The translations under genes and the position numbers were made by a program. Shown piece by piece: positions 10,628-27,346 of a stretch of 40,671 nt of DNA (position 1 is its first letter; every line of letters begins with the position of its first letter). Origin of the DNA: Myxococcales bacterium (GTDB lineage Bacteria > Myxococcota_A > UBA9042). The DNA lies in assembly GCA_037441385.1 (NCBI GenBank), contig JBBISH010000053.1, forward strand, positions 1-40,671. The letters are read 5' to 3'. The notes beneath the pieces were generated by a model. The model ran no database searches. It had not been told where the DNA came from and saw only the letters and a list, made by a program, of their open reading frames with translations.

Positions 10628-12304
10628 TCAGTACAACTTCGCCAAGGTTGCGCCTGCGTAGTAGTGTAGCAGGATTTCCTCAAACTTCTGCCCCGCCTTG
10701 GCCCGCGCCACCGCGCCCGTCTGGTCCATGCCAACGCCATGGCCAAAACCGGCACCCACAAAGGTCCAAGACTGCGGCACGCCATCCTTGCTGGGCCCAG
10801 CTTTGATCAGGACTAGCGACGACCGCAGCCCCTTGGGACCGTGCGAGCCGCCCAGGGCGTCGCGGATCCGCAGTTCGCCTTCGACCTTGATCACACTGCC
10901 GTCGCTTTGCAGCACGTCCAGGGCGATCACCCGGCCCGAGACACCGCGCCGCACCACCGTCAGGGCCTTGACCGGCTTCTGCACACCAAAGCGCTTGAGC
11001 TGACCGGCCAGCTCGTCGGCGCTGCGCTCGGTCCGCCAACGGCAGGCCTCGGCGTTCAGGCCCGAGGCTGCAGCCCAGCTCGAATCCTTGCCTTCCAGCA
11101 GCTGCCGCACCGCGTCTTCGCTCGGGCCGCCCGCCAGCACGTCTTGAGCCCCTGCCACCACATCGGCGCGCCCGCGCAGCGCCGGCTGCGGCCGCCCCGG
11201 CCACACCAGCTCGTTGTTTTCGGTGTGGCCGCCCGAAACCGCGTGGTAGTAGGCGTCGACGAGCCGCCCCTCGCTGTCGACCAGCACCTGCCCGCGTGTG
11301 TCCTGCACGGCCTGGGCAATCCGCGGACTCACCCGCTCCAGCCCGCGGTAGGCCTGGCAGTGCACTTCGGAGCAAATCGCAAAGGGGTCCGTGGCGTGGC
11401 GCGTCCCCACCTTGGCCAGCATGTCCGTGCGGGCCGCCACCGCTTGAGCGCGCAGGGCCGCGTCGGGGGCCGAGTGAAAAATCTCGGACGCCACCACGCC
11501 TTCCAGCACGTTCTCCAAGTCCGCCTCGTTTACCACCTCTAGCCCTTGCCGCCCCGCGACCACGTAGACTCGCCCCGGCAGATCCAGCTCACTGCGCCCG
11601 CCCTTGCGGAGCCCCGTCACCGTGAGCGCCGCCGCCTTGCCCGACGGACGCTGCGCCTCGAACCACAGCACATCGCGGGCATGGACTTCTACGCTCGAAC
11701 CTCCCCGCTCGCGCAGTACCAACTCGGCGCTGGGCGGGGCCGCCACCACTTGCTGGAGCCCCAGGTCCACGTTGAAATGCCGGCCGATCTCTTGCGCTTT
11801 GGCCGCCGCGGCTTCGGCGTCGGCAAACTCCTGGTCCAAGCATAGCAGCGTTTGGCGGGTGTCGAACATGCGCCCGGCCAGGCTGTAGGTGGTGCCTGTG
11901 CCTTGGGCGACCACGGCAAAACCCCGCTCTTTCCAGGTCGTTTTTTGGGCGCGTAGGGTCTCGAAGTCCCACGCGGGCGCTTGGGCCAGGACCACAAAAT
12001 GCTTGACTTCTCCCGGTTTGGCCGCTGTCGCGGTCAGCTCGATGGCGCGCCCCGGCGGCAGACGGATGTCGACTTGGCCGTCGCCCGTCCCCAGCACGCG
12101 CAAGCCCGTGCCCGCGCTGATTTCCACGTGATCTTGGGCCGACAGCACGCTGAGGGGCAACAGGGGCTTGCCGCCGTCGCCGACCCGCAGCACGTCGCGG
12201 TACAGGCTGGCAGCGCGGTCGTCGTGGCCCAGCGGGTCGGCCCACACAGGCGCAGCGACAAGCAGGAACCCAAGAAACAGCAAGGCAAAGCGGCGCGGCG
12301 ACAC
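10628..12304 (-). CDS. SpoIID/LytB-domain peptidoglycan hydrolase, exported
   Basis: Signal peptide (VWA-D); 'LEGVVASE', 'ALRAQAVAART', 'HCQAYRG', 'YYHAVSGGHTE', 'GAGFGHGVGMDQTGA', 'ILLHYY'. Confidence 0.9.
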   Translation of the reverse strand: MSPRRFALLFLGFLLVAAPVWADPLGHDDRAASLYRDVLRVGDGGKPLLPLSVLSAQDHVEISAGTGLRVLGTGDGQVDIRLPPGRAIELTATAAKPGEVKHFVVLAQAPAWDFETLRAQKTTWKERGFAVVAQGTGTTYSLAGRMFDTRQTLLCLDQEFADAEAAAAKAQEIGRHFNVDLGLQQVVAAPPSAELVLRERGGSSVEVHARDVLWFEAQRPSGKAAALTVTGLRKGGRSELDLPGRVYVVAGRQGLEVVNEADLENVLEGVVASEIFHSAPDAALRAQAVAARTDMLAKVGTRHATDPFAICSEVHCQAYRGLERVSPRIAQAVQDTRGQVLVDSEGRLVDAYYHAVSGGHTENNELVWPGRPQPALRGRADVVAGAQDVLAGGPSEDAVRQLLEGKDSSWAAASGLNAEACRWRTERSADELAGQLKRFGVQKPVKALTVVRRGVSGRVIALDVLQSDGSVIKVEGELRIRDALGGSHGPKGLRSSLVLIKAGPSKDGVPQSWTFVGAGFGHGVGMDQTGAVARAKAGQKFEEILLHYYAGATLAKLY

Positions 12305-12401: not shown

Positions 12402-12430
12402 TTGACGGCTTTGGGCGCCCCGCGTAGCCT
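12402..12430 (+). promoter_or_regulatory. Putative sigma70 promoter TTGACG-N17-TAGCCT; predicted +1 at or near ATG 12437 (leaderless)
   Basis: -35 at 12402-12407, 17-nt spacer, -10 at 12425-12430, then 6 nt before the ATG; no SD present. Confidence 0.6.
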
Positions 12431-12436
12431 GCCGGC

Positions 12437-14824
12437 ATGGCACGCACCGGTATTTCTGGACTTCCGCCCAATCGCCCGGTCGAAACGGCGCTGACCTATT
12501 TGCCCGGCATCTCGCGCTCGCGGGCCAAGTCGCTCCTGGCCGACGCGCGCATCGACCCGGATCTGTCCACCGACGAGCTCAGCGAGCTGCAAGTCGATCT
12601 GCTGCGCAACCTGATCCGCGCCGAGTTGGGCGCTCCGGCCGAGGCCAACGCACCCGTCCCCGATCGGCCGTGGCTCGCTGGCGCTGGCGCCGACCTGCAG
12701 CCCTACCTGGATCGCGTTCGCGCCATGCTGCAGCGCTATCTGGTCGTGTTGCGGCCGTGGGACCGCTCGACCGACGACGCCTCGCGCAACCCTCTGCCCG
12801 CCGGTGCCGCGCAAACCCTGGATACCACGTGCATGCGCTGCCTGCGCGGCGAGGCGCTGGACCCCGAGAAGGTGGCCTTCGTCGACCGCATGGAGGCGCG
12901 CCTGGCGGTGCGCTACGACGATCTGACCCCGGCTAGCGAAGCGGCGCAGCGGTTCGACGAACTGCGGGTGGTGTTCGGCCTGAGCGACCTGGAGTGCGAC
13001 CTGCTCTGGCTGCTGCTCGCGCCCGAGATCGCGCCGGAATTCCTTTGGCTTTACAGGGCATTATGGCGCGACACCGCCCGCGTCGCCTGGCCCGAGGACT
13101 TCTTGCAGCACGCCGCCGATCCGTTTGCCGTGCGCGGCAAGGCGGTGCTCGCGGCGGTGGCCGCCACGGCGACGCTGGTGCGGTACGGCTTGGTGTCGGC
13201 TTCGGGCGACCTGGCCACCGGGCTGCGCTACCGGTCCGGTGCCTTTGTTCCCGGGCACTTGCTTGGCCTGCCGATCCGCTTGGACGACGTGCGCGGCCTG
13301 CTCTACCACCCGCACGGCGACTCTGATCCAGGCGACCGGTCGGCCACGCCGATGGCGCCCAGTCTGCGCGACGCCTTGACGCGCGGCTTCCGCAGCGGCC
13401 GGCGCTTCTTGGTCCTGGGCCCCGAGCGGGCGGGGGCCTTGGGGATCGCCCGGCAAGCGTTGGATACCTTTGGCGAAGGCCTGCTCGAAGTGCGCCTGGA
13501 CGTGCTGCTGGCGAACGGCAGCCTGGAGCAGGTGGGGCAGGTGCTGGGCCGGGCCCGGCTGGTGCGCGCCGGGGTGTTCTTCAGCGAAGTGCAGTCGATG
13601 GACGCGGGCGAGCACGGCGCCGAGCGCTTGGCGGCGCTGGTGCAATTGCTGCAACCCGAGACGACCACGATGTTCTTCCACGCGCGGGCGTCGCGGCGGA
13701 CCGAGGACCAAAAGCTCTCGCCCCGTGCACACTTGGCCCTGCTCCGCGAGCTGGGCTGCCTGGAACTGCCCACCGCACCGCCCAGCATCGACGAGCGCCG
13801 CGACCTGTGGCGCCAGCGCCTGACGGGCCGGATGGCCGACCGCGACGTGGACGACACGGTGCAGACGGTCAGCGTGTTCAAATTCGGCGTGGACGAGATC
13901 GACCTGACCATCAACCTGGCCCAGGCGGTGTCGCGGCAGCGCGGCCTGGCCGCCACGGTGCACTTGACCGATGTCGAGCGCGCCGTCCGCGACGTGGCGA
14001 GCTCGCGGCTGTCGGGCCTGGCCACCCGCATCAACGTGCGCGGCCGCTGGGAAAACACCATCTTGCCCGACGATACCCGTGACACCCTGCGCGAGATGGT
14101 GCGCTTTGGCAAACACGCCGGCTTTGTCCTGGACGAACTGGGCTACGGCCGCACCATGGGCTATGGGCGGGCATTGACCGCCATGTTTTCGGGCCCTTCG
14201 GGCACGGGCAAGACGCTGTGCGCCGGCCTGGTGGCGCGCGACCTGGGCCTGGAGCTGTTCCGCGTCGACCTGGCCAGCGTGGTCAGCAAGTACATCGGCG
14301 AGACCGAAGAGCGCCTGAGCAAGCTGTTCGACGCCAGCCAAGACGCTGGCATCGCGCTGCTTTTTGACGAGGCCGATTCATTGTTCGCCAAGCGCACCGA
14401 TGTGCAAAGCTCGGTGGACCGCTACGCCAACCTGGAAGTCAACTACTTGCTGCAGCGCCTGGAAGATTTTGACGGCGTGGTCATCTTGACCACCAACAAC
14501 CCGGAAAGCATCGACAACGCCTTCTTGCGCCGCATCCGCTTCAAGCCCAGCTTCCCGGCGCCCGAAAAGTCCGAACGCGAGCGGCTGTGGTCCGTGATGA
14601 TCCCCGCCGATGCGCCGCGCGAGCTCGACTTGAAATTCAAGGACCTGGCCGCCGACTACGAACTGACCGGCGGTCAGATCCAAAACGCGGTGATCCGCGC
14701 GGCGGTGTGGGCGGCCGAAGAGACCAAACCCATCAGCTACACGCACTTGGCCCGGGCCGCCGAGCGCGAATACAAGGACGCCGGCCGCGTGGTGCGGCAG
14801 TACGCAGACGATCCGGCGAGCTAG
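12437..14824 (+). CDS. AAA+ ATPase (Pvc15/Afp15-like) with an N-terminal ribosomal protein S13-like H2TH domain
   Basis: Walker A 'GPSGTGKT', Walker B 'LLFDEAD', 'KRTDVQSSVDRYANLEVNYLLQRLEDFDGVVILTTN', 'AFLRRIRF', 'LTGGQIQN'. Degenerate first AAA module ('LGPERAGA'); 'FGLSDLECDLLWLLLAPE' winged-helix-like segment. Residues 1-60 resemble S13. Confidence 0.9.
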   Translation: MARTGISGLPPNRPVETALTYLPGISRSRAKSLLADARIDPDLSTDELSELQVDLLRNLIRAELGAPAEANAPVPDRPWLAGAGADLQPYLDRVRAMLQRYLVVLRPWDRSTDDASRNPLPAGAAQTLDTTCMRCLRGEALDPEKVAFVDRMEARLAVRYDDLTPASEAAQRFDELRVVFGLSDLECDLLWLLLAPEIAPEFLWLYRALWRDTARVAWPEDFLQHAADPFAVRGKAVLAAVAATATLVRYGLVSASGDLATGLRYRSGAFVPGHLLGLPIRLDDVRGLLYHPHGDSDPGDRSATPMAPSLRDALTRGFRSGRRFLVLGPERAGALGIARQALDTFGEGLLEVRLDVLLANGSLEQVGQVLGRARLVRAGVFFSEVQSMDAGEHGAERLAALVQLLQPETTTMFFHARASRRTEDQKLSPRAHLALLRELGCLELPTAPPSIDERRDLWRQRLTGRMADRDVDDTVQTVSVFKFGVDEIDLTINLAQAVSRQRGLAATVHLTDVERAVRDVASSRLSGLATRINVRGRWENTILPDDTRDTLREMVRFGKHAGFVLDELGYGRTMGYGRALTAMFSGPSGTGKTLCAGLVARDLGLELFRVDLASVVSKYIGETEERLSKLFDASQDAGIALLFDEADSLFAKRTDVQSSVDRYANLEVNYLLQRLEDFDGVVILTTNNPESIDNAFLRRIRFKPSFPAPEKSERERLWSVMIPADAPRELDLKFKDLAADYELTGGQIQNAVIRAAVWAAEETKPISYTHLARAAEREYKDAGRVVRQYADDPAS

Positions 14825-14846
14825 CCTGGCCGCAACAGAGGACGCA

Positions 14847-15116
14847 ATGGAGAAGACTACGTTCATGGCCATCTTGGCGATCATCGTCGAAGGCTTCGAG
14901 GATCCGAATTTCAAGGCAGAGTTTGCCAAGGCCAAGGCCAGCGGCGACGTGCCGGCCATGATGGCGCTGCCGATGGCCATTCAAGAGCGCGCCTTTGGCG
15001 CCCACGGCCTGGACGCCGCTAGCGGTTCGGCCAAGTTCAAGGAAGCGGGCCGCAGCTACGGGCTGGATCCCGACGTGGCGCCGTGGTTGGCGCGCATGAA
15101 GGCGGCGCTGGGCTGA
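14847..15116 (+). CDS. Small helical protein (89 aa) resembling eukaryotic protein C10 (C12orf57/GRCC10)
   Basis: GAGGA SD and GC-rich third codon positions support the CDS. The C10 similarity is a by-eye alignment to a recalled sequence. Confidence 0.7.
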   Translation: MEKTTFMAILAIIVEGFEDPNFKAEFAKAKASGDVPAMMALPMAIQERAFGAHGLDAASGSAKFKEAGRSYGLDPDVAPWLARMKAALG

Positions 15117-15124
15117 GCTGCAAC

Positions 15125-15314
15125 GCCGGCAACGCGACCAAAATCCACCCGCGAAATTGGCCCTGGCCGTCGATTTGGGATGCAAATCAAGGCGCAAGGA
15201 GCGGAGCGACTGAGGCGACCTAGAGGTCGCCGCAGGGAGAGTAGTGACGCAGCAAGGCCGAGTTGCGCCCAAAGCGGCGGATCGGGGGCGGGCGGTTTCG
15301 TTGACAGTGCCGGC
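15125..15314. repeat. ~190-bp imperfect palindromic element (MITE/REP-like)
   Basis: Central hairpin GGCGACC-TAGA-GGTCGCC (15214-15231); arms CCGTCGATTTGGG / CCCAAAGCGGCGG (11/13); ends GCCGGCA / TGCCGGC. Confidence 0.65.
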
Positions 15315-15336: not shown

Positions 15337-16623
15337 ATGGTCGGCCCCAAGCCCAATCTGCCTGCCTTTTTATCGCCCGCACCGGCGCAAGCCCCTGCGA
15401 CCAGACTGCAGACCATGCGCAAGACTTTTGCCCGCCAGATCGCCTGGTTCACCATCCTGGCATTTGGCATGGCGACGGCGCTGGCCGGCTGCGGCGGCGG
15501 TTTGTCCGACGTGACGTTGGGCAAGCCCGTACCCGAGGTGGCGACCCCGGCCCGCTACTCCGCGGCCCTGCGGCTGGCGGCCCTGGCCCGGGTCGAAGCC
15601 CGCGGCGGAGCCGACGAAGTGGCCGCCGAACACTTCCGCGCCGCCTACCGCAAATACCCCGACGTCAGCTTCCTCATCGGCTACGCGCGCAGCGCCGAGC
15701 GCGCCAAGCTGTATGCCGAAGCCCACGACGCCCTGCGCCGCGCGCTGAGCCACGAACTGACCGCCGAAGAACGGGGCCAGCTGGAAGCCGAGGTCGCGCG
15801 TCTGGCGCCGCTGGTGCCACCGGGTCTGGTGCGGGTGGCCCTGCAGGTCGCGCCCGAAGGCACTCGCGTGGAGTTGACCCGCCAACAACCCGGCGAGTCT
15901 GCGGGCGATCCGCGCAAGAACAGCAAGCGCGCCGCCGACCGCATCGCCCTGGGCACCGGTTGGCTGTACTTGGCGCCGGGCTCGTATGCCGTCTACAGCG
16001 CCTCCAAGGGCTACCAAAGCGATCTGCGAACCCTGCAGGTCACGGCCGAGAGCGCGGACCTCATGGCGATCGCCCTGGCGGCCGAAGACGCGGCGCCGCA
16101 GCTGGTTGACACGACCCGCCCCAAGACCAAGACGCCAGACCACGTCGAGCCCGACGTCAAGCAGCCCGATCAGGGGCCGGTGGTCGAGTTCGAGGACCGG
16201 CCCAAAGTCCGCCGCAGCCCGCTGCATACGCTGGGTCCCGTGGTGCTGAGCGCGCTGGGCGTGTTGGCGGTGGGCGCCGGTGGCTACTTCGGTTGGCAGG
16301 CGAGCCAAAACGCGTCCCTGGCCAACGACTTGTCCAAGGGGTCGGCGTCTTACCAGAGTCAGTTCGATACCTACCATCAAGCGGTGTTGGACAACGCCAA
16401 CCTGGCCAACTACGCCTTTATCGGCGGTGGCGCGCTGGTGGCACTGGGGTCGCTGTGGTGGCTGCTGGCGCCCTCGGCCAAGGCCACGCAAGCCGTCGCG
16501 TCGCCCGCAGAGGGGCCTGCAGCTGCGGGCCATTCCAGCTGGCCAACGCTGAGCCTGCCGCAAGTGGGCCTGTCGCCGGTTGGCACCTCCCCGCTCGGGG
16601 TGTCGTTGCAGTGGCCGCTATGA
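15337..16623 (+). CDS. TPR/PEGA-like exported membrane protein (myxobacterial type)
   Basis: Lipobox 'LAGC'; TPR-like helices 'AAEHFRAAY...AEAHDALRRAL'; PEGA-like 'VAPEGTRVEL...LAPGSYAVYSASKGY'; two C-terminal hydrophobic segments. Alternative start ATG 15415. Confidence 0.75.
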   Translation: MVGPKPNLPAFLSPAPAQAPATRLQTMRKTFARQIAWFTILAFGMATALAGCGGGLSDVTLGKPVPEVATPARYSAALRLAALARVEARGGADEVAAEHFRAAYRKYPDVSFLIGYARSAERAKLYAEAHDALRRALSHELTAEERGQLEAEVARLAPLVPPGLVRVALQVAPEGTRVELTRQQPGESAGDPRKNSKRAADRIALGTGWLYLAPGSYAVYSASKGYQSDLRTLQVTAESADLMAIALAAEDAAPQLVDTTRPKTKTPDHVEPDVKQPDQGPVVEFEDRPKVRRSPLHTLGPVVLSALGVLAVGAGGYFGWQASQNASLANDLSKGSASYQSQFDTYHQAVLDNANLANYAFIGGGALVALGSLWWLLAPSAKATQAVASPAEGPAAAGHSSWPTLSLPQVGLSPVGTSPLGVSLQWPL

Positions 16624-21749: not shown

Positions 21750-23444
21750 CTACTGCCCACAGACCTTCTTGGTCTTGATGTCGAAGGCCGCGTCCAGACT
21801 CTGCAGCAAGGCCGAAGGGTCGCTGGCGTCGGCCCCCAGCAGCTTGCCGCCGCCCGAAATCGCCAAGCTGGCCGAGCCACTGATGTCGGCAGCCGCGGTA
21901 GAACCCGAGATGTCGACGACGATGACCTTGACCGAGAAGGGCTTGCCATCGGGCGAGCGCAGCACGTTGTTGGCCATGTTGGTGGCCTTGACGCCAATGC
22001 CAGGCCGCGGGTCGGGCACGCACAACCCATCGCAAAACGCGGCTTGGCCGGCGCTGGCGTCGGGCAGACACGGGGTCAAGCCCTTGCTGCAGAAGTAGCC
22101 GGTGATGGTCTCTGGCGGCAGGCACAAGGTGTTGGCGGTGCACTTGCCGCCTTTGGCGCAGTCCGAGTCCTGGATGCAGTTGATGTAGGTGCCTTTGTCG
22201 CTCTTGCAGTTCTTGACGTTTTGGCAGGTCGTCCCGCCCACGCAGTCGTCGTCGCTTTGGCAGAACAGGCCGCTGGACAGCCGTTTGGCCTGCACCCAGG
22301 GCGCAAAGTAGCTGTTGCTGTTGTCCTCGCCGCCGTCGGTGAACATGACCACTACGGTCTCGCGGCATGAGCGGTTGGGGTCCACGCACTTGCCCTGCTG
22401 GCAGACGTAGTTGATGTTCTGGCAGCTGTCGTCGTCGCTGCAGGGCTTGCCGTCGATGATGACGCGGTTGCGGATGTACTCGCCCAGGTAGAACAGGGTC
22501 TTGCCTAGCGGCGTCGACCCGTCGGGCCGCAGCTCGGGGTTGACCGGCGTGGTCATGCTCTCTTTGCCGTCCATCCACAGGAGCATCGCGTCCTTGACGC
22601 TGGTCACGTTGGCCGTAGGGAAGGGCACGCACTGAATCTGCGACAGGCCCGACCAGTACCACAGCGGCGCTGAGTCGCCGATGGCCTGATCGCCCTTGTC
22701 ACCGGTGATCTGCTCGTTGCCGCTGTAGTGACCCGAGCTGCACGACAGGTACGAGCCCGAGGACGAACTGGTCTGCGGAAAGCGGAACAGCGCCATGCGC
22801 ATGGTGGTTTCGTCGATCTTGGCCAAGGCCTGCTTGAAGACGTACTTGGAGACGCCCATGCGCGTGCAGCCGCCGGCAAATTTGGGATCGACGTACTCGC
22901 AATCGGGCCATTGGTCGTAGTTGCCGCTGCACTTGGTCGCGCCGCCGATCTTGACGTCGTCGGACATCGAACCCGAGGTGTCGAATGCGATGATCAAGTT
23001 GGCCGCCACGGGCTTGCACTGCCCCGACATGCACGTGGTGCCCGGGAAGCAGTTGCTGATCGAGTAGCCGTTGCCCTTGCTCAGGCAGGTCTTGAGCTTG
23101 GGGCCCTCGCAGGTTTTGGCGCCCGGCGTGCACGAAACGGCGCTGACGTCGGCCGCAGCGTCGATGGCCACCCCGTCGGCGGCGGAAGCATCCGCGTCGG
23201 GCGCGGCAGTATCGGAAAGCGACGCGCTGTCGGCTTCGGTGGCCCCTGCACTGCTGTCGGCCACGGCGTCGAGTGCCCCGGCCGAGGCTTCGGCAGCCAG
23301 ATCCGCGGCGCTGTCTTCAGCAGGTTGGCCGTCGCTCGCGTCGGCCCCGGCGGCCTGGTTCGGCGTGCTGGCAGGTGCGCTACAACTACCGGCGGCAGCG
23401 GCCAAAAGAGCAGCCCTGACCACGCTACGAGTCCAAACTTGCAT
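21750..23444 (-). CDS. Cys-rich VWA-domain lipoprotein
   Basis: Lipobox 'AGSC'; Ala/Asp/Ser-rich linker; MIDAS residues 'FDTSGSM', 'GSTPLG', 'MFTDG'; many Cys. Confidence 0.8.
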   Translation of the reverse strand: MQVWTRSVVRAALLAAAAGSCSAPASTPNQAAGADASDGQPAEDSAADLAAEASAGALDAVADSSAGATEADSASLSDTAAPDADASAADGVAIDAAADVSAVSCTPGAKTCEGPKLKTCLSKGNGYSISNCFPGTTCMSGQCKPVAANLIIAFDTSGSMSDDVKIGGATKCSGNYDQWPDCEYVDPKFAGGCTRMGVSKYVFKQALAKIDETTMRMALFRFPQTSSSSGSYLSCSSGHYSGNEQITGDKGDQAIGDSAPLWYWSGLSQIQCVPFPTANVTSVKDAMLLWMDGKESMTTPVNPELRPDGSTPLGKTLFYLGEYIRNRVIIDGKPCSDDDSCQNINYVCQQGKCVDPNRSCRETVVVMFTDGGEDNSNSYFAPWVQAKRLSSGLFCQSDDDCVGGTTCQNVKNCKSDKGTYINCIQDSDCAKGGKCTANTLCLPPETITGYFCSKGLTPCLPDASAGQAAFCDGLCVPDPRPGIGVKATNMANNVLRSPDGKPFSVKVIVVDISGSTAAADISGSASLAISGGGKLLGADASDPSALLQSLDAAFDIKTKKVCGQ

Positions 23445-23560
23445 CGCGAGACCGCTTGCGCGAGACCACACGCGCTGCGCCAGCCTATCAGAAAAATGCC
23501 AGCGGCGCAGCGCGGTAGGGAGCACTCCCCACCAGACTGCGCCGCCAGCGTGGTCAGGAA

Positions 23561-25588
23561 CTACTTGGTCGGAGCCGGGGCCGGAGCCGGAGCCGGGGCG
23601 ACCGCAGCCGGGGGCTCAGCACCGCCGGGGGCGGGCATCGGCGCCGCACCGCCGCGCGAAGCTTCGATGCCCGACTTGATCAGGTCGACCGGCAGGTCGA
23701 AGCCACACGCGAACGACTTGACGCGGTTGCCGCAAGCGAACAACACCGCCTTGTCGCCGGGGATGTTGATCGTCGGGGGCACGATCGCCTTGAACGCGGC
23801 CAGGGCCGCGCCGGGGTTCACGTAGACGACCGTGGCGCCGTCCTTGGTGCCCACGGCCGCCTTGTAGGCGGGGGCGTCGCTCAGGCCGCCAGCCTTGGCC
23901 ATCGCCGCTGCCTTCGCCTTCTCGAGCGCGCTGGGACCAAAGGCGAAGCTGAGCTTGGCCTTGCCCGCGCAGATCGCCATGGCCAGCTTCTCGCCCATCA
24001 GGGCCTTGGCCTGGGCGGAATCCGGGGGCATCTTGGTGTAGTCCAGGGTCGCGTCCAGCACGTCGCAGGCCACATCGCCTTCGGTGGTGCTGTTGGTGGT
24101 CAGCTTGATGCCCTTGTCGGCGGCGATGCCGTTGATCAGGGTGATGGTGGGCTCGAGCTTGCCGTCCTTCAGGGTCTGCTCAAACGCAGCCATGACCTTC
24201 TCGCCCTGCTCGTCCTTGGCGCCCTTGGCCGCCTGCTCTTCCTTGGCCATCTTCATGACCTGGCTCAGGATGCCGACGATCACGCGCTTGCCGACCTTCA
24301 TCGCGGCCGTGCCGTCGTTCGTGCCCACCGCCACCAGCATGCCCAGAGCGGCCGGGCCGTCGGGGTACACGCCCACGGCGCTGTTGCCGTCTTGCAGCTT
24401 GGCCAGTTCCTTCATGTCGGCGGCCATGGCGTCAAAGGTCGCCTGGTCCATCTTGAAGGCTTCCTTGATCAGCACGAGCGACTCGTCCATCTGCTCCATG
24501 CTGGCGGCCGGGTCGGCCGAGGCGGCAACCGAGAAGTACGAGTTGGCGGGCAGCAGGTTGGCGATCGTCGCGGTGGTGCGGCCCTTGCCGGCGGCCAGCT
24601 GCTTGGCGAACTTGCTGCCGTCCTTGGCCTGCATGCGGAATTCGACGCGCATGTTGCTGGGATCCGCACCAACCAACAGCTCAAAGCGGGTGGCGTCGGT
24701 CAGCCAGGTGCGGATCATCTTCATGTACATGCCCATCGCCTTGGAGTTCAGCTGCGGATTGGCGCCCGCGCCCTCTTGCGACTTGGCTTCGATCATCGCC
24801 ATGAACTGATCGACTTCGGCCTTGCGCGACTTGACCAGCTCGTCGATCGCGATGCCCATGTAGGCCACCGCGGGGACGTCGACCTTGGCCAGATTCTCAG
24901 CAAAACCCTTGATCTTGCCGTAGCGGTCCTTGTCCATGACCGTGATGACCGTGTAGTCCTTGATGAAGTCGAAGTAGACCTTCTCGCCCTTGGGGGTGGT
25001 CAGCAGGGCCTCGTGGCCCTCGGCCTCGGCGGCGACCTTGGCGCCAGCGGCCTTGAGCGCGCCCACCGCGGCGTCCTTGCCGGTGACGGGCAGGAGCAGG
25101 AACACGCCCGAGGCGACTTCCATCGGGTTAGGCGGCGTGCCGGGAGCGGCCGCGGCGTGCTGATCATGGAAGCCGATGTGCAGCGGCTTGCTCATGTCGA
25201 ACCAGGCGATGTCCTTGACGCCAGCCTGAGCCATCACGGCCGTGATCTGCTGAGTGGCCTGGGTGCGCAGACCGCCGCCCGGAGGCAGCAGGCCCAGACG
25301 GCCGCCCACGCCTTCGATGGCGTCGAACATGCCGTTGTAGCTCTTGAACGACAGCCAGGCGACCACAGCCTCGGCGCCCGCCAGCTCGATGTCGGGCTGG
25401 GCAGGGGCAGCCGCCGGTGCGGGCGCAGCCTTCTCGTCGACCTTGACGGCCTCGTCTTTCTTGGCGGGCTCGGCCGCCGCCGCAGCAGCAGGCTTGGCCT
25501 CTTCTTTCTTCTTGCAGCCGGCCGGGACCACCAAGGCTCCACACAGAGCCACGGACGCCGCCGCCGCGATGAAACGATTCTGGAACAT
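23561..25588 (-). CDS. Large hypothetical lipoprotein
   Basis: 'LVVPAGC-KKKEE' lipobox; Ala/Pro-rich termini; strongly GC3-biased codons; GAGG upstream of ATG 25588. Confidence 0.85.
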   Translation of the reverse strand: MFQNRFIAAAASVALCGALVVPAGCKKKEEAKPAAAAAAEPAKKDEAVKVDEKAAPAPAAAPAQPDIELAGAEAVVAWLSFKSYNGMFDAIEGVGGRLGLLPPGGGLRTQATQQITAVMAQAGVKDIAWFDMSKPLHIGFHDQHAAAAPGTPPNPMEVASGVFLLLPVTGKDAAVGALKAAGAKVAAEAEGHEALLTTPKGEKVYFDFIKDYTVITVMDKDRYGKIKGFAENLAKVDVPAVAYMGIAIDELVKSRKAEVDQFMAMIEAKSQEGAGANPQLNSKAMGMYMKMIRTWLTDATRFELLVGADPSNMRVEFRMQAKDGSKFAKQLAAGKGRTTATIANLLPANSYFSVAASADPAASMEQMDESLVLIKEAFKMDQATFDAMAADMKELAKLQDGNSAVGVYPDGPAALGMLVAVGTNDGTAAMKVGKRVIVGILSQVMKMAKEEQAAKGAKDEQGEKVMAAFEQTLKDGKLEPTITLINGIAADKGIKLTTNSTTEGDVACDVLDATLDYTKMPPDSAQAKALMGEKLAMAICAGKAKLSFAFGPSALEKAKAAAMAKAGGLSDAPAYKAAVGTKDGATVVYVNPGAALAAFKAIVPPTINIPGDKAVLFACGNRVKSFACGFDLPVDLIKSGIEASRGGAAPMPAPGGAEPPAAVAPAPAPAPAPTK

Positions 25589-25695
25589 AGCTGGCCTCGC
25601 GAAGGAGTTGGGCTGCAGACACCTGTCCGCACACCGTGAGGCGTGACCTGTGGACCGCCGGGGCGTGCGCACAGGGCCGCTTCAGAGGGCGCGGG

Positions 25696-25791: not shown

Positions 25792-25928
25792 CTACGGGCT
25801 CCGCACGGATCGGCACGAAAACTGCGCCAATTCCTTGGGGACAGAGCGAGATCTCCGCCTAATTCTCGCCGGTTGCAGACCGGATCAGAGAAACCATACA
25901 GGCGCGAATCAGACGGGGTTCGAATCAG
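25792..25928 (+). repeat. Dispersed 137-bp structured element, copy A
   Basis: Aligns without gaps to the reverse complement of 39067-39203 (90/137 identical by hand count); conserved IR CT[AG]ATTCTCGCC...GGCG[CT]GAATCAG. Confidence 0.8.
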
Positions 25929-27346
25929 ATGCGCAGCAGGCTCTGCGCCGACCACCCCAAAGCACGTCGCTGCAGAGCGGTCTCGATCACGGCGAGGCGC
26001 GAGGGCGGCGGATCGGGCTCGGCCAGATAGCCCAGGGCGGCGGCCAACACCCGCTCGCGGTGGGGGTTGCCCGACAGGGCCTGGAAGTCGTCGATCGCCG
26101 CGGCCATCACTGCGATCGCCCGCGCGGCTTCGACCGCCGGCCATCCGCGGTCGGCCAGCGCTGCCTCGCGCAATTGGCTGCAAAGGGGCTGCTCGGGCAA
26201 GACCAGCAAAAAGTAGGCGCGCAAGTGGGCGATCGCCGCAGTCCCGCGGCCCGCATGAAGATGGCTGACAATCTTAGCAATTTCTGGCCCGTGATCCCAG
26301 GTCTGCGGCACTTGCGCCGCCTCGGGCAGATCGCCGGTTTGGCCCTTGGGGCGATCCAACGGAGCGGCGGCGGCGACCAAGGCGGCGGCGAACAGCAGCA
26401 GTTCCAGCCACGCCGCGGGCGCCACCAGTGGCTGCAGCTGCCGGGTCGCCGACGCCAAAATCAGCAGTTGCGCCACGGTCGCGCTGGTCTCGACCACCGT
26501 CGAGTCGCTCTGCCACCGGCGATCGCAGCGAAGCAGCCGCTCGGCCGCCGCCATGCACACCCCTTGTGCCAGCAGTTCGTGCGGAATGCCGACTTCCGCA
26601 GCGCGCAAGCAGGCTTTCAAAGCCTGGTCCACGGTCCCGTCGACCAAGTGCGGGCGGAATTTGGGCTCGACAAAAGCCCGCGCCTTGGCAGGGTCGCGCA
26701 GGTGGGCGATCTCGGCCAGGCGCGAACGCAGCGGCACGATCTTGGCCTGAATCTGCTGGGTAATGGGGTCGCCTTGGGGCAACGCGCCCAGGCCGGCGGC
26801 CAGCAGCGGCAGGTGGCGGGTCGCGGCCGCCTCGCCCAGCTCCGTCGCCAGGTCGGCAAACTTGGCCGCGGCAATAGCGGCGACGCCCAAATCACCTGGA
26901 TTGGAGCAAGCTTGCGCCAGGAGGTCGGGCAGGCTCGCCGCCGTCGCCGGCAGTGCGACCGCTTGCTCGCCCCATGTCGCCAGCCGCTCGCTCACCAGTT
27001 GCGCCGCCAGCAACCACGGGGCCGCCGCCCGCTCGCCGCCTAGCTCCGCGGCCAGCCGGGCGCAGTCGGCCACCGCCCACAGCACCGGATCGCCCAGCAG
27101 CACCGGCTTGCGCAGCACGACCTGCAAAATGGCGTCGGCCAGTTGCGGGCCGTTTGCGCCCTGCTCCCAGGCGGCCGCCACGGCGCCAGCTAGCTCAGCC
27201 GGCGGCAGCGCCCCCAGCCAGCTTGCCACTTCAGTCACCTGCGGCACCTGGGCCGTGGCAAAGCCAAGCGTATCGCGGCCCAGCGCGTCGCGGGGCGGCA
27301 TCGGGCTGCTGGGCAAGGGGGGACGCGAGCGGACCGCACTGCGCAT
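25925..27346 (-). CDS. Hypothetical all-helical protein
   Basis: 473-aa Ala/Leu-rich ORF 28 nt downstream of, and co-oriented with, the sigma54 regulator; start uncertain. Confidence 0.7.
   Translation of the reverse strand: MRSAVRSRPPLPSSPMPPRDALGRDTLGFATAQVPQVTEVASWLGALPPAELAGAVAAAWEQGANGPQLADAILQVVLRKPVLLGDPVLWAVADCARLAAELGGERAAAPWLLAAQLVSERLATWGEQAVALPATAASLPDLLAQACSNPGDLGVAAIAAAKFADLATELGEAAATRHLPLLAAGLGALPQGDPITQQIQAKIVPLRSRLAEIAHLRDPAKARAFVEPKFRPHLVDGTVDQALKACLRAAEVGIPHELLAQGVCMAAAERLLRCDRRWQSDSTVVETSATVAQLLILASATRQLQPLVAPAAWLELLLFAAALVAAAAPLDRPKGQTGDLPEAAQVPQTWDHGPEIAKIVSHLHAGRGTAAIAHLRAYFLLVLPEQPLCSQLREAALADRGWPAVEAARAIAVMAAAIDDFQALSGNPHRERVLAAALGYLAEPDPPPSRLAVIETALQRRALGWSAQSLLRI

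Follow-up and report, generated by a model that had tools for sequence, protein, structure and literature searches.

A uS13-tagged, Afp15-type AAA+ ATPase and a small C10-like protein form a probable two-gene operon confined to one Myxococcota family

We analysed a 40,671-nucleotide (nt) window, positions 1-40,671 of contig JBBISH010000053.1 of a Myxococcales bacterium, and within it a pair of neighbouring genes that encode an AAA+ ATPase of 795 amino acids (aa; positions 12437-14824, + strand) and a small protein of 89 aa (14847-15116, +). The ATPase combines a domain resembling the N-terminal part of ribosomal protein uS13, a winged-helix N domain, a dead first AAA module (D1) and an active second one (D2), and the small protein is modelled as a five-helix bundle that recalls protein C10 (PF14974). 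A preliminary description of this DNA had placed the two genes 22 nt apart in the same orientation, as the listing of open reading frames (ORFs) bears out: both ORFs are real, they share a strand, and the 22-nt spacer (14825-14846, +) holds a GAGGA ribosome-binding site (14838-14842) that ends 4 nt 5' of the small gene's ATG. We conclude that the pair is probably a lineage-specific, vertically inherited two-gene operon with a leaderless mRNA, and probably more than a stray part of a syringe, that is, of an extracellular contractile injection system (eCIS). The reading that we prefer, and hold tentatively, is that the pair constitutes an autonomous unfoldase specific to this lineage, which would be recruited via a nucleic-acid- or ribosome-type N-domain and would use the C10-like protein as its cofactor.

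The range and linkage of the two genes were examined in 37 genomes of the order, whose 14 genera all fall in a single Myxococcota family (f1). The small gene is present in 34 of these genomes, in all 24 of the high-quality ones and in every one of the 14 genera. Directly upstream of it and on the same strand lies the ATPase gene in 27 of 30 loci; of the other three, two run into a contig end and one shows a real deletion. In the 27 pairs the intergenic gap runs from 1 to 141 nt, with a median of 18, and ATPase orthologues are 58-96% identical over their full length across the 14 genera. In a further search, over 401 sampled genomes of the phylum, the profile of the small protein matched 27 of the 28 f1 genomes and gave two weak partial matches elsewhere, with no credible match in the other 372 sampled genomes. 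An orthologue of the ATPase N region (at least 60% identity) is found in 26 of the 28 f1 genomes, and outside f1 the relatives of this region reach 28-36% identity only and mostly lack residues 1-80. The expectation that the two genes would recur as neighbours was thus borne out by these 27 loci, and both genes are confined to f1. These observations support the conclusion that the two genes form a conserved unit.

A few genomes depart from this arrangement. By comparing locus L052 (G007:C33) with locus L039 (G003:C7), we found that genome G007 has a clean deletion of ~2.4 kb that takes the ATPase gene alone, after which ~80 nt remain, with the small gene and both flanks intact. G007 is in effect a natural ATPase knockout in one species. 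In genome G016 the small gene is inverted in place (L051, G016:C51, 7940-8194) and convergent with the ATPase gene, so co-transcription of the pair would not be universal. Genome G019 contains two complete pairs, and genome G021, which is 83% complete, contains neither gene.

The ATPase has the layout of the eCIS ATPases Afp15 and Pvc15. Pfam places a winged-helix domain (PF22977) at residues 91-258, with 35 bits against a cut-off of 27 (E 1.5e-8), and an AAA domain at residues 583-703 (E 7e-26). We built an AlphaFold model on 32 orthologues, with a mean predicted local distance difference test score (pLDDT) of 73, in which both D1 and D2 adopt an alpha/beta fold. The model has a disordered linker at residues 67-81 (pLDDT <50), followed by a helical N domain with the winged helix at residues 88-275 (12698-13261, +), where pLDDT is mostly 76-95 and dips to 48-67 around residues 101-130. 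D1 (residues 305-525; 13349-14011, +) is degenerate: its P-loop lysine is kept in 0 of the 32 orthologues, none of which has GK[ST], and the DE of Walker B is not conserved, so we regard this module as dead. D2 (residues 545-790; 14069-14806, +) is the catalytic module and is intact, with Walker A and B motifs (GPSGTGKT, DEAD), a KYIGE pore loop and the motif DRYANLEVNYLLQRLE at residues 661-676. We also considered a C-terminal HbYX proteasome-docking motif and rejected it, the C-termini of the orthologues being ...VRxY[PA]D[ED] or acidic tails.

As a reference we used an eCIS cluster on a plasmid of Serratia marcescens, in which Pfam verified genes for tube, CIS_tube, spike protein, gp25, spike tip and Pvc16_N. 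Its ATPase has PF22977 and AAA domains, a D2 that is 41.6% identical to the D2 in the window, and the motif DRHANIEVSYLLQRLE. Pvc15 is described, in the available text of PMC11495950, as having an N domain with a DNA-binding-like fold, a deficient D1 and an active D2. The PF22977 match, the state of the D1 and D2 motifs and the match to the Serratia ATPase therefore uphold the earlier assignment of an Afp15/Pvc15-type layout with a dead first and an active second AAA module.

In front of this layout stands a domain that is related to uS13. Residues 1-66 of the ATPase (12437-12634, +) look like a copy of the N-terminal H2TH domain of that protein. The Pfam family PF00416 matches residues 9-62 (positions 7-60 of the 128 in the model) with 26.9 bits, below its cut-off of 31, and TIGR03631 (uS13) scores 30 bits against a cut-off of 130. 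Yet 50 of 50 PDB matches to residues 1-88 (E<=0.01) are uS13 chains, the best with E 4.3e-8, and their alignments, gapless and collinear, start no later than the ninth residue of either protein. Against about 100 true uS13 genes from elsewhere in the Myxococcota, residues 1-66 show 32-45% identity. The genome's own uS13, a normal gene on another contig, is 28% identical to the domain; beside it stands an ORF that we take to be uS11. The S13-like label is therefore sound, and residues 1-66 are homologous to the N-terminal domain of uS13, as a domain copy rather than as a ribosomal protein. Across 32 sequences, 18 positions within residues 1-66 are invariant. In contrast to this conservation among orthologues, the domain was found in 0 of 26 related ATPases by BLASTP (E<=0.01), a set in which five own-genome paralogues, the nearest relatives in other families and the ATPase of the Serratia eCIS were all represented. 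This combination of conservation and absence points to a recruitment module that was added to the ATPase and kept by selection.

The small protein of the window matched no Pfam, NCBIfam or PADLOC family, with Pfam, PF14974 included, tried to E<=10. It belongs to a tight family (24 close matches and 91 profile matches, all with an identity of 52% or more and a length of 48-107 aa), and a word-indexed profile search returned the same 91-protein family only and no eukaryotic C10, a result for which the limit of the word filter is probably the cause. The model is a five-helix bundle with pLDDT 95.1, folded from residue 3. Three lines lead from it to PF14974. The nearest ESM Atlas clusters carry this family (top score 0.93, 230 of 256 features); it is the top family for 23 of 89 members scanned singly (E<=1, best E 4.5e-4), the next family matching 3; and the orthologue in genome G011 matches positions 2-84 of the 103-position model with 19 bits against a cut-off of 27. 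Run in the other direction, PF14974 gave no match at E<=10 in the window's own genome and three weak matches in the 401 phylum genomes, one of them the G011 orthologue and 0 over the cut-off. These weak lines agree in making the small protein a distant relative of protein C10 and not a member of PF14974, and the name "C10-like" survives in that sense, with every match to the family below threshold.

What is reported of the human family member gives some idea of what such a fold may do. In the part of PMC13478489 that is available, C12orf57 is described as a five-helix bundle and predicted to bind ANKRD50, and the accessible text of PMC11838199 has it shown to bind CAMK4; the C10 fold thus appears to work as a small protein-binding module. 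A mention of GRCC10 in a preprint on ribosome collisions proved to be a read-filtering remark and was set aside as irrelevant.

We then considered injection systems. The preliminary description had found no injection-system genes nearby, and none of the 23 window ORFs scanned matches a sheath, tube or baseplate family; genome searches for sheath, tube and Pvc16_N also gave no match on the window's contig. This observation holds but proves little, since the same genome does encode an eCIS elsewhere. Contig C29 bears sheath, tube, CIS_tube, gp25, Baseplate_J and Tail_P2_I genes, and the short contig C198 bears Pvc16_N and a second sheath gene. Two stand-alone tail-tube genes (PF06841; G000:C112:6863-7252 and G000:C14:41650-42039), with identical scores of 131.7 bits, lie far from the eCIS cluster among unrelated genes, and a third tube domain forms the C-terminal end of a 324-aa protein on C5.

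The presence of an eCIS raises an alternative that we consider possible, if on the unlikely side: the ATPase could be the Afp15/Pvc15 of f1, encoded apart from its cluster, which would act in trans on the distant eCIS, stabilising cargo and threading it into the tube, and the C10-like protein would be an adaptor for it or a cargo. The winged-helix N domain, dead D1, active D2 and motif that it shares with a verified eCIS ATPase, and with Pvc15 as described above, speak for this idea. So does the eCIS of genome G011, one contiguous locus (L097, G011:C4:92000-111900) that lies between a phosphoribosyltransferase and an FHA protein and contains no ATPase; likewise no ATPase homologue was found on the eCIS contigs of the window's own genome or of 5 of 5 f1 genomes checked. 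Pvc16_N occurs in 33 of the 37 genomes of the order, and every f1 genus has this marker. Afp15, moreover, is one of eight subunit types present in >85% of eCIS loci, according to the available portion of PMC6899500. The f1 eCIS locus itself, which has no ATPase, includes two genes for sheath proteins (~400 and ~600 aa) and two of the tube family; a contig break directly behind the short sheath gene, seen in several assemblies, suggests a repeat at that spot.

Other evidence weighs against a loader. The eCIS marker Pvc16_N is found in 79 of 107 genomes of the class, whereas the gene pair is found only in f1; this type of eCIS thus appears to exist without a uS13-tagged ATPase and a C10-like gene. 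In ten genomes from nine other families of the class, a D2 homologue (E<=1e-25) stood on the Pvc16_N contig in 0 of 10, the size of most marker contigs not being established, and in the single-contig genome among the ten the nearest D2 homologue is 918 kb from Pvc16_N. These ten genomes have 2-13 D2-module matches each, a count in which double-AAA proteins can appear twice, and many of their D2-bearing ATPases lie beside large proteins of unknown family. Nor do the closest relatives of the ATPase outside f1 accompany injection genes: no eCIS family occurs within ~10 kb in 13 of 13 loci, as judged from ORF-filter gene calls, and the neighbours in all 13 are unrelated or unknown genes.

Genome G007, despite the deletion of its ATPase gene, still has Baseplate_J and two sheath genes, none of them interrupted by a stop codon. 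This counts only weakly against a loader, because PVC particles assemble without Pvc15 (PMC11495950, in the text available). A joint loss of the ATPase and the eCIS in G007 was considered and rejected, because a contig edge accounts for the miss of Pvc16_N, and sheath genes as well as Baseplate_J are there.

There are also other candidates for the loading role. A paralogue of the C133 type is 67-69% identical across four f1 genomes, and the window's own genome has a pair of adjacent paralogues (L056, G000:C8:72500-92400) of 713 and 503 aa, the second without Walker A, at ~1.5 kb from a 533-aa protein with an eCIS_core domain (PF13699). The latter locus may be an effector-plus-loader island. 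The small protein, folded from residue 3, is without the disordered N-terminal leader that PVC payloads carry (PMC11495950, same portion), and the uS13 domain has no known loading role.

We therefore prefer the reading of an autonomous unfoldase, for which we propose the following mechanism. The ATPase would form a ring, in which D2 would burn ATP and pull a polypeptide through the KYIG pore loop and the degenerate D1 would likely serve as a scaffold. The winged-helix N domain and the tethered nucleic-acid-binding copy of the uS13 N-terminus would select the target, which may be an RNA-protein particle or a partner of uS13, for example the 30S head or uS19. The cofactor would be the C10-like protein, as an adaptor for the ATPase or its regulator, and the unit would work alone and not as a dedicated eCIS part. 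We infer ring formation, threading, the target, binding of the small protein to the ATPase and independence from the eCIS. What speaks for them is the domain layout, the state of the motifs, the conserved uS13-like domain that related ATPases lack, the linkage of the two genes, their confinement to f1, their housekeeping neighbourhood and the eCIS type that occurs without the pair. Further support comes from the G007 deletion, the paralogue pair near an eCIS_core protein, the relatives without eCIS genes and the role of C10 as a protein binder.

Several points weigh against this proposal. The substrate, the binding to RNA or the ribosome and the contact between the two proteins are predictions, and the idea of a ribosome or ribonucleoprotein (RNP) target derives from a single element, the uS13-like domain. 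The uS13-type fold also binds DNA in other families, so that the ribosome is one option. The Afp15-type architecture and the near-identical D2 motif point to an eCIS ancestry. With Afp15 present in most eCIS loci and the f1 locus devoid of an ATPase, some unlinked ATPase may serve that eCIS, and as every f1 genus has the eCIS marker, co-occurrence cannot separate the autonomous unfoldase from the loader in trans. Finally, the small gene is intact in G007, where the ATPase is gone, and inverted in G016, and the small protein may therefore not strictly depend on the ATPase.

A further alternative, which we consider unlikely, is a DNA-associated remodeller. It would attach to DNA through its winged helix and its H2TH-type uS13-like domain, and its motor would strip or unfold a DNA-bound protein, with the small protein in a regulatory role. 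Two putative nucleic-acid-binding modules do precede the motor, and topA and dprA are encoded in the window. However, the domain is closest, collinearly and at 35-45% identity, to true uS13 and not to the H2TH of DNA glycosylases or topoisomerases, the upstream genes are not syntenic across genera, and no conserved DNA-enzyme partner lies nearby.

A more specific form of the ribosome idea seems to us slightly less likely again. The ATPase could be a bacterial ribosome-directed segregase, with six tethered uS13 mimics by which the ring would dock at the position of uS13 or of its partners, such as the 30S head, uS19 or the B1 bridge partners, and with the C10-like protein as adaptor. Once the ring is docked, the motor would pull out or reshape a component of the ribosome, in the course of assembly, quality control or dormancy. 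If this were true, proteins of the C10 family, the human disease protein C12orf57 among them, would be cofactors with an origin as AAA+ adaptors.

The defence role floated in the preliminary description fares worst: an anti-phage or conflict system of the ATPase-plus-effector type, like IetAS, is suggested by a PADLOC IetA match at residues 538-775 (E 2.5e-26) and an NCBIfam IteA score of 85.9 bits, but it is very improbable, as both matches are limited to the generic AAA module, the NCBIfam score is far under the cut-off of 510, the partner is an 89-aa helical protein without a PADLOC match and not a protease, and the pair is core, single-copy, vertically inherited, syntenic, 58-96% conserved across 14 genera and set in housekeeping surroundings, unlike patchy defence islands.

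The preliminary description had put the pair behind one promoter, and a candidate can indeed be read upstream of the ATPase gene (12402-12430, +), with a -35 element TTGACG (12402-12407), a 17-nt spacer and a -10 element TAGCCT (12425-12430). A consensus promoter scan found 0 sites and did not call this one, so that the promoter stands as a prediction. The -10 element ends 6 nt 5' of the ATPase ATG, and there is no Shine-Dalgarno sequence. A TAnnnT hexamer is likewise found 6-8 nt 5' of the ATPase ATG in 12 of 13 related loci with upstream sequence, again without a ribosome-binding site. A box at this distance and the missing ribosome-binding site imply a promoter of the leaderless type, the mRNA of which would have no leader. 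Six terminator-like sites from the consensus scan all lie inside the ATPase ORF and were disregarded.

The "long palindrome" that had been taken to close the unit exists as a short inverted repeat downstream of the small gene (15210-15235, neither strand), with arms of only 12 nt (92%). A weak stem-loop is possible there, and no T-run follows. The 220-nt spacer that holds the repeat folds no better than shuffled sequences (z -1.8; 13 of 200 as good).

On the other side of the pair, upstream of the ATPase gene, the divergent SpoIID gene noted earlier is present (10628-12304, PF08486), but it is not a conserved neighbour in other genera and was matched in 0 of 15 wider loci checked. Downstream synteny is broader: a TPR/membrane protein, a MopE-repeat protein and a Mur ligase recur in most wider loci checked. 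The first two of these are, in the window, a 428-aa protein (15337-16623) and a 1120-aa secreted protein with Cys-rich MopE-type repeats (PF11617; 16664-20026), both syntenic with the pair in most of those loci. The window as a whole is ordinary chromosome, with rsmB, dprA, topA, a methyltransferase, a Mur ligase, a sigma-54 activator, RNase E/G, the MopE-repeat protein and others. Three consecutive ORFs of 591, 703 and 473 aa (21750-23525, 23561-25672 and 25925-27346, - strand) match no Pfam family at E<=1e-4.

Automated annotation has already noted both domains of the ATPase, for example as 'AAA+-type ATPase/ribosomal protein S13'. Among the literature matches listed, we found no paper on a uS13-ATPase fusion, on the gene pair or on bacterial relatives of C10. 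As cargo loaders, Afp15-type ATPases are under study and are being engineered for programmable injection systems, and a branch that stands outside the injection cluster, with a ribosomal domain and a fixed partner, suggests that the family may do more than load syringes. eCIS clusters without an ATPase across the class, together with the scattered D2 matches, bear on how these systems load. For protein C10, which is involved in human disease and has an unclear biochemical role, the pair also supplies a bacterial relative with an operon context.

We compared the two proteins with the known systems that they resemble. With uS13, residues 1-66 of the ATPase share homology, collinearity and the Met-Ala-Arg start; unlike uS13, the copy has no C-terminal tail and lies outside a ribosomal operon. 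The small protein may resemble protein C10 (C12orf57, PF14974) in being a small five-helix bundle, the form that its model takes and that the published description gives for the human protein, and it differs in being bacterial, operonic and shorter than the 103-position model. The likeness to IetAS and IteA is that of the AAA module, and the pair differs from them in having neither a protease partner nor a full-length match nor the behaviour of a defence island.

Classical-clade segregases are tandem-AAA rings with N-terminal recruitment domains, several of which act on ribosomal particles. Members of this clade (VAT, Cdc48/p97, Afg2/Drg1 and Rix7/NVL) are the best solved-structure matches to D2, with E from 2e-33 to 1e-25. 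In contrast to them, only D2 of the window ATPase aligns (residues 582-743), its N region is unrelated by sequence and its D1 is dead; the CDC48 family TIGR01243 reaches 73 bits, on D2 only, where its cut-off is 802. Afp15 and Pvc15 share with the window ATPase the winged-helix N domain, the degenerate D1, the active D2, the KY pore loop and a near-identical motif, DR[YH]AN[LI]EV[NS]YLLQRLE. Unlike them, the window ATPase stands outside an eCIS cluster, carries an extra uS13-like domain and is coupled to a C10-like gene, and it is limited to one family whereas the eCIS is class-wide.

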